The notes under the pieces were generated by a model. That model worked only from the letters and a program-made list of their open reading frames with translations, ran no database searches and was not told where the DNA came from. A program made the position numbers and the translations under genes. A stretch of 5,558 bases of DNA, from positions 1-5,558 of IMG/VR virus record IMGVR_UViG_2711768068_000018. The stretch is one strand, 5' to 3'. Each line of letters opens with the position of its first letter. Positions within the stretch are counted from its first letter, which is position 1. The stretch is from a virus. Its lineage: Duplodnaviria > Heunggongvirae > Uroviricota > Caudoviricetes. This document shows positions 1 to 5,558 of the stretch, piece by piece.

Positions 1-152
1 ACCCAGACACGCAGAGTCTCCGGCGTACAGCCAATCTTTGGAGCAATGGAACAAATTGTCGCCCATTGTGAGTCATATTCGCCCTGACTTTCCAGAACCA
101 TACGGGCTGCCCGTTGACGGACTTCAGGGGAAAAACGAGTATTTTTAGTCAT
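1..152 (-). CDS. IS3-family transposase OrfA, N-terminal part (partial, runs off window)
   Basis: Hand translation of the reverse strand from ATG at 152-150: [50 protein letters not shown]..., matching the recalled N-terminus of IS629/IS1203-type OrfA (HTH region). A GAGG-type RBS lies upstream on the minus strand (gagaaagaggtaaacagg before ATG). Not in the ORF track because it has no stop within the window. Confidence 0.8.
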
Positions 153-206
153 CCTGTTTACCTCTTTCTCAGGAAGTTTAGTCTCCAGGATTCCCGGGGC
201 GGTTCA
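1..206 (-). mobile_element. IS3-family insertion sequence (IS629/IS1203-like), left end only; element continues beyond the window start
   Basis: Minus-strand OrfA starts at 152 and runs off the window. Plus-strand 201-206 GGTTCA is the reverse complement of the TGAACC terminus of IS3-family inverted repeats (minus strand reads TGAACCGCCCCGGGAATCCTGGAG...), so the element/flank junction is placed at 206/207. Family assignment is from recalled similarity, not a search. Confidence 0.7.
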
Positions 207-298
207 TTTGCAGGAACTTATTTTTCACAGACAGCAATGATGCCTGTCAATATATTATTAATATGCGGATTGTTTCAGTTACAGATGCTTTATTAAGG

Positions 299-340
299 AA
301 AAAACAGCCAGCACTGACTTTCGGTGGAGAGGTGCTGGCT
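299..340 (-). terminator. Putative intrinsic terminator acting on minus-strand transcripts
   Basis: Perfect 9-bp inverted repeat 306-314 (AGCCAGCAC) / 332-340 (GTGCTGGCT), with a possible inner 5-bp extension (318-322 / 327-331) around a GGTG loop. On the minus strand it is followed by a run of six T (plus-strand A run 299-304). Confidence 0.4.
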
Positions 341-475
341 CAAAAGGATAGTTGGATTTCACATGATACTTATATCTGGCAGTACATTTTCTGACAGACA
401 GTGACGGGGGGTGTCAAGATATTGTGTCATTTATAACCTGAGTCAGGGGGGGCCCCTATTAAGTTGTCAAGCATG

Positions 476-1672
476 TTATGACGCCTGCGGGGTATAAAAA
501 GTCCCGTCGCGCATCATGGCGAACAGAACGTCGCAGCGTCGTCTCGCCAGGGCGATAAGCGCCTGATTGTGTCGTTTTCCCTGACTCATTTTGCGGGTGT
601 AGTAAGCCCTGGAGAGCGGATCCCTGAGCGCGGCGAAGGCCGACAGGAACAACGCCCGTTTGAGAGCTTTATTACCCCGTCGCGAGGGATGCTCACCGCG
701 TATTGACGAGCCGGATCGCCGAGTTACCGGCGCAAGGCCAGCATAAGCAGCGAGATGTGCGGCAGAGGCGAAGGCGCGGCAGGCGACCTCGGTGAGGAGT
801 CTGGCTGCGGTCCTGACACCGACTCCGGGCATACTGGTCAGGACCGGGTAAAGAGGGTGAGCAAGAACTCGCTGTTCTACCTCAAGCGCCACCTCGTCTC
901 TTTGCTTACGCAGCGTGATGAGCTGGAGTGCCAGACGTGGCAGTACTACGGCAGCGGCATTCGTGCCGGGAACGACGACGGTTTGTTCGGCCAGTGCCTG
1001 AGCTATGTCTGCTGCAAGGCGTTTACCCAGACGAGGCGCAAGTTTGCAGAGCTGGGCTGCCAGCTTCTTCTCACCCAGCGAAGCGAGTTTTTCTGGTGAG
1101 GGATATCGCTGGAGAAGATCGAGTACCGCCGGGTGATCAAGTCTCGGACCGAGAACGCGCTCCAGTGCCGGATGTATCTGGGTCAGAAGGCCGCGGATAC
1201 GGTTGCTGGCCTGCGTTGTCTGTGCGGCAAGATCATCATCGAAGCCGCAGAGCATGGAGAGTTCGGCGATTTGCTCGTCAGCCAGTTTCAGCGTGCGTAG
1301 CGCGTGAGGCAGGGTACGGGCAGCTTCGGCAATGATGGCAGCGTCACGAGCATCAGTTTTAGCTTCACCGGCGTGTAAGTCGGCTATGCGGCGCATGGCC
1401 AGTCCAGGGAGGTATCCGACAAGGACTCCTTCTGAGCGGGCAACGGCGACAGGTAACGCACCGATGGTAGCTGGCTGATCAACAACCAGCAGTATCTGAC
1501 CATGTTGTTTCAGGTCAGATATTAGCGACCTGAGTTTGTTTTCGTCGTTGGGTAATGCTTTATCGAACAGGCGTTTACCTGAACGATTAATGGCTACAGC
1601 GTGATGCGTATCTTTACCGACATCAACGCCGATAAAGACCTGGACGGATTCGTAATCGCTGGATTCGGTCAT
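476..1672 (-). CDS. IS110-family transposase / DEDD-type recombinase
   Basis: 398-aa ORF. N-terminal VFIGVDVGKDTHHAVAI is the hallmark first Asp motif of the RuvC-like DEDD domain of IS110-family transposases; the C-terminal region has YAGLAPVTRRSGSS, the conserved Ser-containing motif of the family's Tnp domain. AGGGAG Shine-Dalgarno 6 nt upstream of the ATG on the minus strand (1673-1690). Confidence 0.9.
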   Translation of the reverse strand: MTESSDYESVQVFIGVDVGKDTHHAVAINRSGKRLFDKALPNDENKLRSLISDLKQHGQILLVVDQPATIGALPVAVARSEGVLVGYLPGLAMRRIADLHAGEAKTDARDAAIIAEAARTLPHALRTLKLADEQIAELSMLCGFDDDLAAQTTQASNRIRGLLTQIHPALERVLGPRLDHPAVLDLLQRYPSPEKLASLGEKKLAAQLCKLAPRLGKRLAADIAQALAEQTVVVPGTNAAAVVLPRLALQLITLRKQRDEVALEVEQRVLAHPLYPVLTSMPGVGVRTAARLLTEVACRAFASAAHLAAYAGLAPVTRRSGSSIRGEHPSRRGNKALKRALFLSAFAALRDPLSRAYYTRKMSQGKRHNQALIALARRRCDVLFAMMRDGTFYTPQAS

Positions 1673-1689
1673 TCTGTCTCCCTTGTATA

Positions 1690-1870
1690 TGGGTTAACCA
1701 GATAACCACGGGGAGCAGGTACCGGCATCCACGTTACAGACGGTCCCGGCAAAAGTGCCTGACCTGACCCCTATTAGCGGTTACCAGCGCCCCACCAGAC
1801 CCGGTGACATCACCCCCCGGATCATGGACGACTGGGGGCAGTAATCATGCCGGGTCTGGCTGGCTAACAC
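1690..1870 (-). ncRNA. Candidate bridge RNA (IS110-type guide RNA) in the 5' leader of the IS110-family recombinase; hypothetical
   Basis: About 180-200 nt GC-rich non-coding leader between the putative -10 (minus strand TATAAT at 1879-1874) and the recombinase RBS, with no plausible ORF. In the IS110 subgroup (e.g. IS621) the bridge RNA is encoded in exactly this position. Structure not verified by eye. Confidence 0.25.
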
Positions 1871-1965
1871 CCCATTATAAGGGGTACGAATAAAGTAACG
1901 GGGCCGGAATGTTATCTGGCATTTTTAGCAGAGCCTGAATGCCATAATCACGGCTCCCGGCGTTG

Positions 1966-1999
1966 GCCGTCAGTGGGTGACACTGGCGGCTTTTTGTTT
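1966..1999 (+). terminator. Strong intrinsic terminator, tR'-like, upstream of the lysis genes
   Basis: 10-bp stem 1966-1975 (GCCGTCAGTG) / 1981-1990 (CACTGGCGGC, one G-U pair), 5-nt loop GGTGA, followed by TTTTTGTTTT (1991-2000). Its position just before the holin gene matches lambdoid tR' at the end of the short late leader (6S) transcript. Confidence 0.6.
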
Positions 2000-2045
2000 T
2001 CCTTTACTTTCATTTTCTGTCGGCGGTGACGGAGACATACATCAG

Positions 2046-2252
2046 ATGGAAAAAATCACAACGGGTGTGTCATACACCACGTCAGCGGTGGGGACGGGAT
2101 ACTGGCTACTGCAGTTGCTGGACAAAGTCTCTCCGTCCCAGTGGGTGGCAATAGGTGTACTGGGGAGTCTGCTGTTTGGCCTGCTGACGTATCTGACTAA
2201 CCTGTATTTCAAAATCAGGGAGGACCGCCGTAAGACGGCGCGGGGGGAGTAA
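2046..2252 (+). CDS. Holin, phage-21 S-like class II pinholin (68 aa)
   Basis: Translation [68 protein letters not shown] closely resembles recalled phage 21 S68 / E. coli EssD-type holins. Two TMDs (Gly/Ala-rich TMD1, hydrophobic TMD2) and a charged C-tail. The ORF-track start at 1977 is a GTG inside the terminator loop; ATG 2046 with a GGAGA Shine-Dalgarno (2030-2034) is the likely true start. Confidence 0.85.
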
Positions 2253-2256
2253 AGCG

Positions 2257-2616
2257 ATGAAGAAAAAATACGAACTGGGTGTTAAAGGGATAAATAATTA
2301 CCCGGATAAGATTACTGTTACTGTGGCACTGGAAATTGGTGGGTATCCGTCACTGTTGTTGCCAGATGTGGCGATTAGTCTTGACCGTACTGAAGGTGCC
2401 ACGCTGGAGTTTTACGAAGCTGAGGCGAAAAAGCAGGCGAAGCAGTTTTTCATGGATGTTGCTGCCGGGTTATGTGAAGGGGATGGTCCGTTGCCGGAAA
2501 AGCGGCCCATCATTTTAGAGGCGCAGGATGTGTTGATAACCTACAGAGGAAAACTACCGGGAATAATTACTGGTTCTCTGAAGACTACTGAAGACTTAAC
2601 ATATCCAGGGATTTGA
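2257..2616 (+). CDS. Hypothetical soluble acidic protein (119 aa) between holin and endolysin
   Basis: ATG 4 nt after the holin stop with a GGGGGGAG Shine-Dalgarno at 2242-2249, indicating translational coupling. No TM segment and no motif I recognise. This position is empty in phage 21 and lambda. Confidence 0.7.
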   Translation: MKKKYELGVKGINNYPDKITVTVALEIGGYPSLLLPDVAISLDRTEGATLEFYEAEAKKQAKQFFMDVAAGLCEGDGPLPEKRPIILEAQDVLITYRGKLPGIITGSLKTTEDLTYPGI

Positions 2617-2641
2617 AATCGATAAATCCTGATAAATATCC

Positions 2642-3175
2642 ATGAACGCAAAAATCAGATACGGCCTGTCGGCTGCCGTTCTGGCGCTGATTGGTGCAGG
2701 GGCGTCTGCGCCTGAAATCCTCGACCAGTTTCTGGATGAAAAGGAAGGTAACCACACCACAGCATACCGTGATGGTACGGGTATCTGGACCATCTGCCGC
2801 GGTGCCATCCTGGTGGATGGTAAACCTGTCGTCCCGGGCATGAAGTTGTCGAAGGAAAAATGCGACCAGGTTAACGCCATTGAGCGTGATAAGGCGCTGG
2901 CATGGGTGGAGAAAAACATCAAAGTGCCGCTGACCGAACCCCAGAAAGCGGGGATCGCGTCATTCTGTCCGTACAACATTGGTCCCGGTAAGTGTTTCCC
3001 GTCGACGTTTTACAGACGAATTAATGCAGGTGATCGAAAAGGTGCCTGCGAAGCGATTCGCTGGTGGATTAAGGACGGTGGCAGAGACTGCCGTATTCGT
3101 TCAAACAACTGTTACGGTCAGGTATCCCGTCGTGACCAGGAGAGCGCGCTGGCGTGCTGGGGAATCGACAGATAA
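2642..3175 (+). CDS. SAR endolysin (GH24 T4-type lysozyme family, phage-21 R-like)
   Basis: 177 aa. N-terminal weakly hydrophobic Gly/Ala-rich signal-anchor-release segment (YGLSAAVLALIGAGASA), then E35/D44/T50 in the spacing of the GH24 lysozyme catalytic triad (EGNHTTAYRDGTGIWTICRG). Overall collinear with recalled R21 and E. coli RrrD-type lysozymes. Confidence 0.92.
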   Translation: MNAKIRYGLSAAVLALIGAGASAPEILDQFLDEKEGNHTTAYRDGTGIWTICRGAILVDGKPVVPGMKLSKEKCDQVNAIERDKALAWVEKNIKVPLTEPQKAGIASFCPYNIGPGKCFPSTFYRRINAGDRKGACEAIRWWIKDGGRDCRIRSNNCYGQVSRRDQESALACWGIDR

Positions 3176-3314
3176 GAAGAATATTTTGCTGAAAAATGAG
3201 GTTTGCTTACATGGACGGATAACACGAAATCCTGCAAATTGGCAAAATGTAAGTGAATAAAGTCAAAACAGTTGTTTAACACTCAGGCACCGTAATGATG
3301 CCTTTGTCATTTCT

Positions 3315-3336
3315 GCGCATCTCACGCGCATCTCAC
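3315..3336. repeat. Perfect tandem duplication of an 11-bp unit (GCGCATCTCAC x2)
   Basis: 3315-3325 and 3326-3336 are identical, in the intergenic region about 110 bp upstream of the Ant-like gene. Confidence 0.6.
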
Positions 3337-3445
3337 AACACAGAACCTTTCAGGATGACCCTTGAGGATACCGGTTTGGCTGTCGGTGCCTTTCTGTGGG
3401 CTGGATTCCTGTGAGACAAGGTTCATCACTAAAAGGAAATAACCG

Positions 3446-4015
3446 ATGAATATGATGGCCGTGCCGTTTCACGGCAACTCTCTTTATGTAGTTAACCATA
3501 ATGGCGAACCATACGTTCCCATGAAACCTGTCGTTGCGGGGATGGGGCTGGCCTGGCAATCACAGTTGGCTAAGTTAAGACAGCGTTTTGCGTCAACTAT
3601 AACGGAAATCGTTATGGTTGCTGAGGATGGGAAACAACGCAATATGGTGTCCATGCCACTTCGAAAACTTGCCGGCTGGCTACAAACCATTAATCCCAAC
3701 AAAGTAAAACCCGAAATCCGCGATAAGGTCATCCGGTATCAGGAAGAGTGCGACGATGTTCTTTACGAGTACTGGACGAAGGGTTTTGTCGTTAATCCCC
3801 GTAAAATGAGCGTGATGGAAGAACTCAACCAGGCTTGTGCTGACATGAAACGGGATAAAAACATTGCCAGTGTGTTTGCTACCGGGCTGAATGAGTGGAA
3901 ACAGGTTAAAGCCGCGCATGTATCAAAAATCCGTACGCTGGTAAATGAAGCGAATATGCTGATTGATTTTGTCCTGGCTGATACAGGCAAAGGGAAAATA
4001 ACAAAGGCGGATTGA
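3446..4015 (+). CDS. Putative antirepressor-like protein (Ant/AntA N-terminal-domain type), 189 aa
   Basis: ORF with an AGGA Shine-Dalgarno (3433-3436). The N-terminal region (VPFHGNSLYVVNHNGEPYVPMKPVVAGMGLAWQSQ...) resembles, from memory, antirepressor N-terminal domains annotated in enterobacterial prophages. Domain family not confirmed by a search. Confidence 0.7.
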   Translation: MNMMAVPFHGNSLYVVNHNGEPYVPMKPVVAGMGLAWQSQLAKLRQRFASTITEIVMVAEDGKQRNMVSMPLRKLAGWLQTINPNKVKPEIRDKVIRYQEECDDVLYEYWTKGFVVNPRKMSVMEELNQACADMKRDKNIASVFATGLNEWKQVKAAHVSKIRTLVNEANMLIDFVLADTGKGKITKAD

Positions 4016-4026
4016 TGGGGTGGCTA

Positions 4027-4161
4027 ATGATATCAGATAAACTCATAACGCTGGTGAAGAGCCTCTGTGTACTTGTCGGCATTTCATTTTTAGTCATGCT
4101 GGTTGCCATTTTCTTTTCCACCGCCTGGCGAGTCCTGACGTTATCGGGACTGGTGGGGTGA
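4027..4161 (+). CDS. Possible small single-pass membrane protein (44 aa), not in the ORF track
   Basis: ATG 4027 to TGA 4159-4161: [44 protein letters not shown]. One hydrophobic helix. Tiles exactly between the Ant-like stop (4015) and the Rz start (4169); GGGG 6 nt upstream. Could be a chance ORF. Confidence 0.3.
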
Positions 4162-4168
4162 AAGAGAG

Positions 4169-4636
4169 ATGAACCGTGTTCTGTGTGTGGTGATTATTGT
4201 CATGGCGGTTGGCTGTGGTGCGCTGTGGCTGGCAACAAACCATTACCGTGACAACGCGCTCACCTACAAAGCGCAGCGCGATAAAAAAGCCAGAGAGCTG
4301 GAACAGGCGAATGCCACCATTACTGACATGCAGGTGCGCCAGCGTGATGTTGCTGCGCTCGATGCAAAATACTCGAGGGAGTTAGCCGATGCGAGAGCTG
4401 AAAATGAAACTCTGCGTGCTGATGTTGCCGCTGGTCGTAAGCGCCTGCGGATCAACGCCACCTGCTCCGGTACCGTGCGTGAAGCCACCGGCACCTCCGG
4501 CGTGGATAATGCAACCGGCCCCCGACTGGCAGACACCGCTGAACGGGATTATTTCATCCTCAGAGAACGGTTGATGACAATGCAGAAGCAGCTGGAAGGG
4601 GCACAGGACTATATCCGCACTCAGTGCCTGAACTAA
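4169..4636 (+). CDS. Rz: Rz inner-membrane spanin (i-spanin)
   Basis: 155 aa with an N-terminal TMD ([19 protein letters not shown]) then [32 protein letters not shown]...[24 protein letters not shown], collinear with recalled lambda Rz. AGAGAG Shine-Dalgarno at 4163-4168. Confidence 0.93.
4389..4574 (+). CDS. Rz1: Rz1 outer-membrane lipoprotein spanin (o-spanin), embedded in a different frame within Rz
   Basis: 61-aa ORF wholly inside Rz in another frame. Signal peptide plus lipobox (LVVSAC, Cys20) and a proline-rich mature part ([33 protein letters not shown]) that is nearly identical in pattern to recalled lambda Rz1. GAGGGAG Shine-Dalgarno 7 nt upstream. The true start may be Met6 (4404). 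Confidence 0.85.
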
Positions 4637-4998
4637 GTTTTGCTGATGCGCCGTATCGTCGCCGTATTCCTGCATTAACAGAGACCGCAGCCCGACAGGG
4701 AGACTCCTCTGCGAGAGTGTGCGGGGATAATCAAAAACGATACACACCGGGGTTTACCGCGTAAACGGAGCGCGGCGTTCTCCCCTCATGGTCGCCCGTC
4801 CGGTGCGATGGTGGAAGAAACTGGAATCTGTTCAATAAAAAAACTGCCGTGTTGGAGTCACAGCAGTAATGTACTGATTGGGTAGAAGATTATTATTGTT
4901 ATGCTTTATTCTTATTCTATATGGCTGATTATTTCAATTCGGAATTAATACAGCTAATGTCTGTGAGTTTTTATAAATTCAGCAATATAAAGAAATAG

Positions 4999-5226
4999 TT
5001 ATATGAACAGCCATCGCAGAGCATACTGTGTATCATTCTTTTTTATAGTCAACTGACGGGCATATTTTATGTCTGCTGCCAGCTCCCGGCGGCAAGATTC
5101 AATGACCCACGCAGAAAAATTTTCTGAACCTTTCTGGTCAAGAGCGATGTTAATTTGTTCAATCATCTGGTTTGGAAATCGGATGTTGCGGGTTGTTGTT
5201 CTGCGGGGCCGGTTTTTCGATGACAT
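4999..5226 (-). CDS. Small DUF3950/YlcI-YnfO-like protein, possible ribbon-helix-helix DNA-binding fold (75 aa)
   Basis: MSSKNRPRRTTTRNIRFPNQMIEQINIALDQKGSENFSAWVIESCRREL... resembles recalled YlcI/YnfO-family small prophage proteins found beside terminase genes. AGAGGA-type Shine-Dalgarno on the minus strand just upstream of the ATG at 5226. Confidence 0.65.
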   Translation of the reverse strand: MSSKNRPRRTTTRNIRFPNQMIEQINIALDQKGSENFSAWVIESCRRELAADIKYARQLTIKKNDTQYALRWLFI

Positions 5227-5267
5227 TTTCTTTCCTCTGGTGACAAGCTATATGGCGAGGATTTTAC

Positions 5268-5558
5268 ATGGCTGTGCTTCGTACGTTACCGGGCAGAATC
5301 AAAACTCTGAACACCCGGCGGGTGAATATTCTGAAGGGTGAACAGCGTCGTGTCAGTGGCAGTGCACGTGTTTCCCTCAAGCGTCATATCTGGCTCAGGG
5401 ATGCCGGGCAGTGCTGTCTCTGTGGTCGTGTGGTTGACCTCTGTGACAGTGAACTCGATCACCGCATTGCACTTCAGTTCGGTGGTGGTAATGAGGAGAC
5501 GAATCTCTGGACGCTCTGTACCGAATGCCATCGACAAAAGTCTGCTCGTGAAGCGGCG
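5268..5558 (+). CDS. HNH endonuclease, phage packaging-associated type; 5' part, runs off window end
   Basis: Hand translation from ATG 5268 (GAGGA Shine-Dalgarno 5257-5261) gives 97 codons with no stop: MAVLRTLPGRIKTLNTRRVNILKGEQRRVSGSARVSLKRHIWLRDAGQCCLCGRVVDLCDSELDHRIALQFGGGNEETNLWTLCTECHRQKSAREA. CxxC...DH...N...CxxCH is the canonical HNH zinc-finger nuclease motif. Missing from the ORF track only because it has no stop within the window. Confidence 0.85.
   Translation, partial: MAVLRTLPGRIKTLNTRRVNILKGEQRRVSGSARVSLKRHIWLRDAGQCCLCGRVVDLCDSELDHRIALQFGGGNEETNLWTLCTECHRQKSAREAA

Follow-up and report, generated by a model that had tools for sequence, protein, structure and literature searches.

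Introduction

Some insertion sequences carry the two halves of a promoter at their opposite ends, so that the promoter becomes complete only when the ends are joined; here we describe a probable case of this kind in ISEc20, an element of the IS110 group that lies in a 5,558-nt stretch of viral DNA (positions 1 to 5,558 of the IMG/VR record IMGVR_UViG_2711768068_000018, the whole of which is called the window below). In IS621, the promoter is rebuilt across the core between the right end and the left end; its -35 box lies in the right end at a depth of more than 11 bp, and the 191-bp left end gives rise to a 177-nt bridge RNA (PMC11208160). The 5' stem-loop of IS110 bridge RNAs is conserved in structure and diverse in sequence, and in IS621 it is only mildly important (PMC11208158). 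The hybrid promoter Pjunc of ISPpu10 from Pseudomonas putida has its -35 box in the right end and its -10 box in the left end, spans the core, and directs transcription of the bridge RNA across the left end up to the coding sequence, coexisting with a weak native promoter (bioRxiv 10.64898/2026.03.19.712850; PMC12288879). The same division, with the -35 box at one end, the -10 box at the other and a promoter formed upon circle joining, is known for ISEc11 and IS492 (IS110/IS1111 family) and for elements of the IS3, IS21 and IS30 types (PMC12288879, PMC13626964). Still, ISPpu9, also from the IS110 family, forms circles and has a left-end bridge RNA but no hybrid promoter, being served by a good native one (PMC12288879), and thus a junction promoter is not obligatory in this family.

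ISEc20 is most readily compared with IS621, with which it shares a DEDD recombinase, a long non-coding left end and a bridge RNA, predicted in ISEc20, that is about 175-177 nt long and comprises a 5' hairpin, a target loop and a donor loop (PMC11208160, PMC11208158, PMC13626964). The predicted promoter layout is also alike, with the -35 box in the right end, the -10 box situated at the core and the beginning of the left end or just inside them, and the promoter present in the circle only; transcription starts about 15 nt into the left end in IS621, as is predicted for ISEc20. The two elements differ in their guides and in the core, which is a single shared CT in IS621, while ISEc20 usually has CC on the left and CA on the right, and its target is C-rich. 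ISPpu10 targets repetitive extragenic palindromic (REP) sequences and has a CT core, and its circle and promoter activity have been demonstrated experimentally, whereas those of ISEc20 are predicted. More distant are ISEc11, which belongs to the IS1111 group and has its guide RNA downstream of the gene, and the IS3, IS21 and IS30 families with their DDE transposases and inverted repeats. ISEc20 and ISSfl4 have already been listed with a left-end bridge-RNA prediction by Durrant et al. (PMC11208160 supplementary tables), and our literature search on these two elements found nothing on their promoters.

A promoter predicted at the circle junction

When the ends of the ISEc20 copy in the window (Table 1) are joined in silico through a 2-nt core, the TTGACA box of the right end stands exactly 17 nt from the hexamer TACTTT at the beginning of the left end, and this pair probably makes up a sigma-70 promoter that is completed only by the joined ends. 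The junction predicted with this core reads ...CTTGACAACTTAATAGGGG-C[A/C]-CGTTACTTTATTCG..., or, with the candidate promoter elements set apart, ...CATGC TTGACA ACTTAATAGGGG-C[A/C]-CGT TACTTT ATTCGTACCCCT TATAAT GGGG.... The -35 box begins 5 nt past the last base of the recombinase stop codon, or 8 nt when counted from the first base of that codon. Scored with a simple sigma-70 weight matrix, whose consensus frequencies follow the classic compilations, TTGACA-N17-TACTTT reaches 12.05, a value attained by 7 of 2000 shuffles, while both junctions of the integrated element score at most 5.8. A promoter scan of the integrated window between positions 380 and 2060 called no promoter-like site, and the integrated arrangement probably holds no sigma-70-like promoter. 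As single hexamers, TTGACA and the TATAAT discussed below are at chance level in the window (three TTGACA against 3.4 expected, one TATAAT against 1.7 expected), and any significance must rest on position and conservation.

Conservation was counted over 44 distinct end combinations, obtained from 59 loci of related elements with both ends, the spacer being measured under the assumption of a 2-nt core. All 44 relatives carry TTGAC[A/G/T] with 12-13 nt between it and the right terminus (TTGACA in 22, TTGACG in 21, TTGACT in one), and it is followed, at a distance of 17 nt in 14 relatives and 18 nt in the remaining 30, by a hexamer of the form TAC[T/C][A/T]T (TACTAT in 22, TACTTT in 15, TACCTT in seven). 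This pairing is kept in 44/44 cases from Enterobacteria to Actinobacteria, and the sequence of the spacer drifts among the relatives (ACTTA, AAGGAC, ACCAC, AAAAC and others). Moreover, the -10 box ends in an invariant T (left-end position 9), though this base lies outside the donor segment CGTTAC.

The proposed course of events is as follows. Excision of the element as a circle would join the right and left ends via the 2-nt core, and the junction would place TTGACA 17 bp upstream of TACTTT, creating a sigma-70 promoter that is absent when the element is integrated. The predicted start of transcription lies about 7 nt past TACTTT, at left-end positions 15-17 (approximately 1884-1887 in the window), directly before the hairpin described below. 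The transcript would yield a bridge RNA of about 175 nt, consisting of the 5' hairpin, a target-binding loop for the C-rich site (...CC / CACCCCCC) and a donor-binding loop for the two ends in joined form (ATAGGGG / CGTTAC), with the recombinase mRNA coming after it on the same transcript. We estimate the probability of this overall explanation, a circle-dependent TTGACA-N17-TACTTT promoter that serves the bridge RNA as well as the recombinase, at roughly 0.7. Sequence analysis shows the boundaries of the element, where the hexamers lie and how far apart, their conservation in the family, the covariation in the RNA and the matches of the guides to ends and target, while circle formation, the exact sequence of the junction, the activity of the promoter and the position of the start are all parts that we infer, and ISEc20 would be a new instance, recognized by sequence analysis, of a known design whose mechanism has already been established in relatives.

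The TATAAT hexamer and the bridge RNA

The first-pass annotation of this DNA had also proposed a split junction promoter in an IS110 element, with TTGACA as the -35 half and TATAAT as the -10 half. Both hexamers are where it placed them, TTGACA on the minus strand at 470-465, facing out of the element, and TATAAT on the minus strand at 1879-1874, within CCCC (1870-1873), ATTATAA (1874-1880) and GGGG (1881-1884) of the plus strand. The concept and the -35 half are borne out, the latter by the conservation in all 44 relatives, whereas the role of TATAAT is not, the likely partner being TACTTT. By our analysis, TATAAT is the loop of the 5' hairpin of the predicted bridge RNA (ACCCC / UUAUAAU / GGGGU) and not the -10 box of the junction, and it apparently reads UAUAAU by happenstance.

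A hairpin starts at left-end positions 16-17 in nearly every relative, but the stem sequences are unrelated (ACCCC/GGGGU, GCCUCGA/UCGAGGC, GACCUUGAG/CUCAAGGUU, UCCCAGU/CCUGGGA, and long stems in Actinobacteria), and so are the loops; the hexamer TATAAT itself is not conserved among the relatives. In the alignment, which was not tuned to the hairpin, compensatory changes are seen at three of the five pairs of the 5' helix. An E. coli relative with 88% identity and the loop TGTAAT (L102) was given little weight, being a decayed copy.

The rest of the bridge RNA, which as a whole is predicted to cover left-end positions 16-190 (1885-1711 in the window), is delineated by covariation. In the alignment of 59 sequences, the first long stem is 98.6% paired with 6 of 11 pairs changed on both sides, and the second one is 98.0% paired with 4 of 6 pairs changed on both sides, compared to 33-50% in controls with slid partners. 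The stems enclosing the target and donor loops are 96-99% paired, with many compensatory changes. Two internal loops match the target and the joined donor ends, respectively, as expected of a bridge RNA: the right donor guide contains GUAACGUG, the reverse complement of CA followed by CGTTAC, and the last base of the left donor guide covaries with the right-end terminus in 30 of 31 cases (G/G in 22, A/A in eight, one mismatch). An Rfam search with the whole window at E <= 1 returned no matching family. The right target guide is polymorphic, being GGGGGGUG in the window and in most RefSeq copies and GGGGGGGG in two of the loci (L007 and L033).

The element, its ends and its relatives

Judging from its ends and its gene, the minus-strand segment 453-1900 is an intact copy of ISEc20 and an ordinary member of the IS110 group. 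The recombinase is annotated in RefSeq as 'IS110-like element ISEc20 family transposase' and has full-length Pfam matches to PF01548 DEDD_Tnp_IS110 (1-155 of 155, E = 7e-49) and PF02371 Transposase_20 (3-86 of 87, E = 7e-22). It thus combines an N-terminal DEDD (RuvC-like) domain with a C-terminal Tnp domain, as is characteristic of the IS110 group, and its length of 398 amino acids can be set against the 326 amino acids of the IS621 recombinase. The non-coding ends are of unequal length, 228 nt on the left against 23 nt on the right, also in line with the group. Terminal inverted repeats are absent, the two ends matching each other in 4 of 10 and 8 of 20 positions.

The boundaries were set by an uninterrupted copy of the prophage (L001), where the empty site reads ...CCTGAATCAGGGGGTGGCCGGAATG..., together with the ends common to the 59 loci from Enterobacteria, Burkholderiales and Actinobacteria, which in the orientation of the element start with CGTTAC on the left and finish with ATAGGG[G/A] on the right. 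An alignment with an empty site had been proposed in the first-pass annotation, and together with the related loci it places the termini at 453 and 1900. The range of 445-460 suggested there for one boundary contains the right-end terminus, while the range of 1880-1895 misses the left-end terminus by 5 nt, so that the hexamers, taken as a guide to the left boundary, are off by 5-20 nt. A 4-nt duplication GGCC, derived from a BLAST comparison with the empty site and implying a 36-nt spacing, was considered and dropped, as the comparison of multiple copies shows CGTTAC/ATAGGGG ends and a 2-nt junction.

Relatives were collected as 80 loci encoding recombinases 73-99% identical to that of ISEc20, from Enterobacteria, Burkholderiales, other Proteobacteria and Actinobacteria. 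Loci of Enterobacteria, Burkholderiales and Microbacteriaceae (L011-L082) encode recombinases with 73-82% identity and have nearly the same guides, ends and target motif, and this likeness across phyla points to the spread of one element lineage. Near-identical ISEc20 copies, with query coverage of at least 80%, are present in about 1120 of 5426 complete E. coli genomes.

Table 1. ISEc20 and neighboring features in the window, with promoter and RNA elements as predicted
Feature	Position	Strand	Remarks
ISEc20 insertion sequence, 1448 bp	453..1900	-	From CGTTAC... (1900) to ...ATAGGGG (453); empty site and 59 loci
Recombinase gene, 398 amino acids	476..1672	-	Open reading frame and Pfam domains
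Shine-Dalgarno-like AGGGAG	1678..1683	-	Before the recombinase start codon; putative, read from the sequence
Candidate -35 box TTGACA	465..470	-	Points outward from the right end; 12 nt to the terminus
Predicted -10 box TACTTT	1892..1897	-	At left-end positions 4-9; 17 nt separate it from TTGACA in the circle
Core dinucleotide, right-end junction	451..452	-	CC here; CA in nearly all other copies
Core dinucleotide CC, left-end junction	1901..1902	-	Flank comparison
Left-donor segment TAATAGGGG, right-end terminus	453..461	-	Identical to the left donor guide in the bridge RNA
Right-donor segment CGTTAC, left-end positions 1-6	1895..1900	-	Invariant in the family; complementary to the right donor guide
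Predicted 5' stem-loop of the bridge RNA, ACCCC / UUAUAAU / GGGGU	1869..1885	-	TATAAT (1874-1879) is the loop
Predicted target-binding stem-loop	1794..1860	-	11-bp closing stem; flanks of occupied sites compared
Left target guide CUGCCCCCA	1833-1841	-	In the target-binding loop
Right target guide GGGGGGUG	1811-1818	-	Reverse complement of the right-hand target CACCCCCC
Predicted donor-binding stem-loop	1711..1792	-	Covariation and guide matches
Left donor guide UAAUAGGGG	1768-1776	-	Identical to the right-end terminus
Right donor guide GUAACGUGG	1729-1737	-	Complementary to the left-end start
IS3-family (IS629-like) element end	1-206		First open reading frame starts near 152 on the minus strand
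Holin	2045-2252		
YdfR-like gene	2257-2616		
Lysozyme	2642-3175		
Antirepressor	3446-4015		
Rz	4169-4636		

Insertion sites

All ISEc20 copies lie between ...CC and CACCCCCC-like flanks, and CACCCCCC itself follows the right end in almost every copy. Six occupied sites were compared with alleles lacking the element: the prophage site of the window, yfhM, an intergenic site next to a helix-turn-helix (HTH) regulator, yecD, an alpha/beta hydrolase gene (abh) and dgcE. Three of them come from two assemblies with error-prone-looking flanks (90-95% identity to almost all E. coli), where homopolymer counts are unreliable. Four of the comparisons show a net change in length of +2 upon occupation, one shows 0 and another +4, and when CC is taken out together with the element, five of the six sites return to their wild-type length. 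No single rule relating the empty and the occupied state was retained: models with an identical core of 2 nt, with a 1450-bp element that makes no duplication, and with a right end that extends further each fail at some of these sites.

Frameshift alleles without the element, resembling counterparts of the occupied sites, were found for dgcE and yfhM. The frameshifted yfhM of strain 472 (L095, NZ_CP018245.1 3041639-3041938), with GATCA, seven C and ACGG, is the counterpart of the ISEc20-occupied yfhM of the O55:H7 strain DEC5D (L091), and, relative to the K-12 allele (C600, L096), it has three positions changed to C and lacks 2 nt; 595 records match the reconstructed yfhM without the element, with at least 99% identity over 300 nt. 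The allele of strain 472 could be either a target allele or an excision scar. At the right junctions of two E. coli/Shigella loci (L009, L010) and one Cupriavidus locus (L048), the flank is not a C-run but CA-CGTTAC..., resembling the start of the element's own left end, which suggests insertion at a donor-like half site. In addition, a 62-nt remnant of an ISEc20 left end, matching positions 1839-1904 of the window, lies inside the Rz gene of another prophage (L105, NZ_CP091756.1 883726-884591), where it is cut off by an IS3-family (IS629-like) element and is again flanked by ...GC-CC before CGTTAC.

Weighing the explanations

A number of observations weigh against the junction promoter as proposed. 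TACTTT agrees with the -10 consensus in only three of six positions, among them the key T1, A2 and T6. The TAC of this box overlaps the invariant donor segment CGTTAC, hence part of its conservation has another cause, and the TGA inside TTGACA is the stop codon of the recombinase in some Actinobacterial relatives, so that coding may add to the conservation of the -35 box. The junction dinucleotides differ, being CC on the left in about 90% and CA on the right in about 95% of the family loci, and the flanks of occupied sites deviate from the alleles without the element by 1-3 substitutions within about 4 nt of it, always toward ...CC^CACCCCCC (444-452 and 1901-1911 in the window; L001, L089, L090, L091-L098, L083-L088); therefore, the model of identical cores known from IS621 does not fully hold. 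The sole natural junctions between a right and a left end that were found by querying E. coli genomes with the junction are tandem arrays in three E. coli records; head-to-tail arrays of ISEc20 consist of two copies on the plasmid NZ_CP024616.1 (L099, 39091-42835) and of three copies on the chromosome NZ_CP024056.1 (L100, 1475423-1479167). Tandem junctions hold 4-5 nt (CCCC or CACCC) and bring TTGACA to 19-20 nt from TACTTT. One scan of metagenome contigs and one of viral contigs, each with its own degenerate junction pattern, yielded no circle-junction sequence. We read the arrays as presumably one copy inserted in a C-run beside another, consistent with the target preference, and not as circle junctions; if circles contained the same extra bases, the junction promoter would be weak.

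Circle junctions might, accordingly to this last possibility, normally incorporate extra C residues from the flanking C-runs (4-5 nt in total), with a spacing of 19-20 nt and a weak or variable promoter, as could be read from the tandem junctions GGGG-CCCC-CGTTAC and GGGG-CACCC-CGTTAC and from the occupied yfhM site, which equals the O157-type allele without the element plus 1448+4 nt. We consider this improbable, since the window site, the HTH site and the yecD and abh sites from low-quality assemblies are each longer by the element and 2 nt, CA immediately precedes CGTTAC in what the right donor guide reads, and the 2-nt core puts 44/44 relatives at 17-18 nt, which would otherwise be a coincidence. 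The spacing in the arrays would also suit a function of TTGAC in recombination, as a contact of the recombinase or the bridge RNA or as a subterminal repeat, with no junction promoter at all and expression by read-through or from internal promoters, as in ISPpu9, an IS110-family element that forms circles without a hybrid promoter (PMC12288879); TTGAC does adjoin the donor segment. It is, however, outside the stretch matched by the donor guide, every relative keeps the -35 consensus at 17-18 nt from a TAnnnT hexamer despite the drift of the intervening sequence, and, as in IS621, the conserved 5' hairpin follows immediately after the predicted start; these points make a purely recombinational role highly improbable. 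As for TTGACA and TATAAT forming the junction promoter between them, as was initially suggested, both are perfect consensus hexamers in compatible orientation near opposite ends, but in the joined ends they are 35 nt apart (12 nt of the right end, 2 nt of the core and 21 nt of the left end) instead of 16-18 nt, and 37-38 nt apart at the natural tandem junctions, and therefore cannot form one sigma-70 promoter. A rescue would require about 18 nt of the left end to be lost at the junction, with no sign of such a deletion, and it is TAC[T/C][A/T]T at 17-18 nt, not TATAAT, that is conserved; we give this pairing practically no chance.

An unlikely alternative, which leaves the junction promoter in place, is that TATAAT (left-end positions 22-27) additionally acts in the integrated element as a weak resident promoter lacking a -35 box. 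It would supply basal recombinase and a bridge RNA without the 5' hairpin, both of which are needed for the first excision. The hexamer is a perfect -10 consensus in the right orientation, and -10-like hexamers (GATAAT, GACAAT, TACAAT, TATACT) recur in the hairpin of many proteobacterial relatives. Yet there is no acceptable -35 box at 15-19 nt, the best candidate being [A/C]CGTTA at 16 nt, with the second core nucleotide as its first base and a total score of 4.05; the TG extension is missing, the promoter scan calls nothing here, and Duganella-type and Actinobacterial relatives lack the hexamer, their hairpin loops being unrelated. Moreover, basal expression of IS621 relies on read-through transcription (PMC13626964). 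A further elaboration, in which the two promoters produce two forms of the bridge RNA, seems distinctly unlikely: TATAAT would give a 5'-truncated RNA together with the recombinase in the integrated state, serving excision, and the junction would give the full-length RNA with the hairpin in the circle, serving insertion. If this were true, the hairpin would have two functions, one as a promoter element and one as an RNA module shifting the balance between excision and insertion. The circle-dependent TTGACA-N17-TACTTT promoter is the explanation that we prefer.

Prophage surroundings

The window represents the lysis region of a lambdoid prophage, in which ISEc20 has the end of an IS3-family element on one side and the holin gene on the other (Table 1); the record that matches the window best is an E. 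coli plasmid of 94 kb, of the IncFII type. Two unrelated insertion sequences thus lie at most 250 bp apart in the lysis region, ISEc20 being antisense and standing between the upstream prophage sequence and the lysis genes. On the plus strand, two terminator-like hairpins (1903-1920 and 1965-1991) are found between the insertion point and the start of the holin gene, and the first of them begins exactly at the flank base adjoining the core.

Biological implications

ISEc20 is among the commonest IS110-group elements of E. coli and Shigella, occurring in about a fifth of complete E. coli genomes, and the present analysis supplies usable parts for it: the exact ends, a predicted junction promoter, and a putative bridge RNA, about 175 nt long, to which guides and a C-rich target can be assigned. 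As the mechanism is known in relatives, the gain is at the level of annotation and is not conceptual. The case also teaches that a perfect TATAAT near the end of an insertion sequence can mislead when the boundaries have not been mapped. The layout of the predicted promoter halves, kept from Enterobacteria to Actinobacteria, supports the view that circle-dependent expression may be an old, selected feature of this clade and not a peculiarity of IS621.

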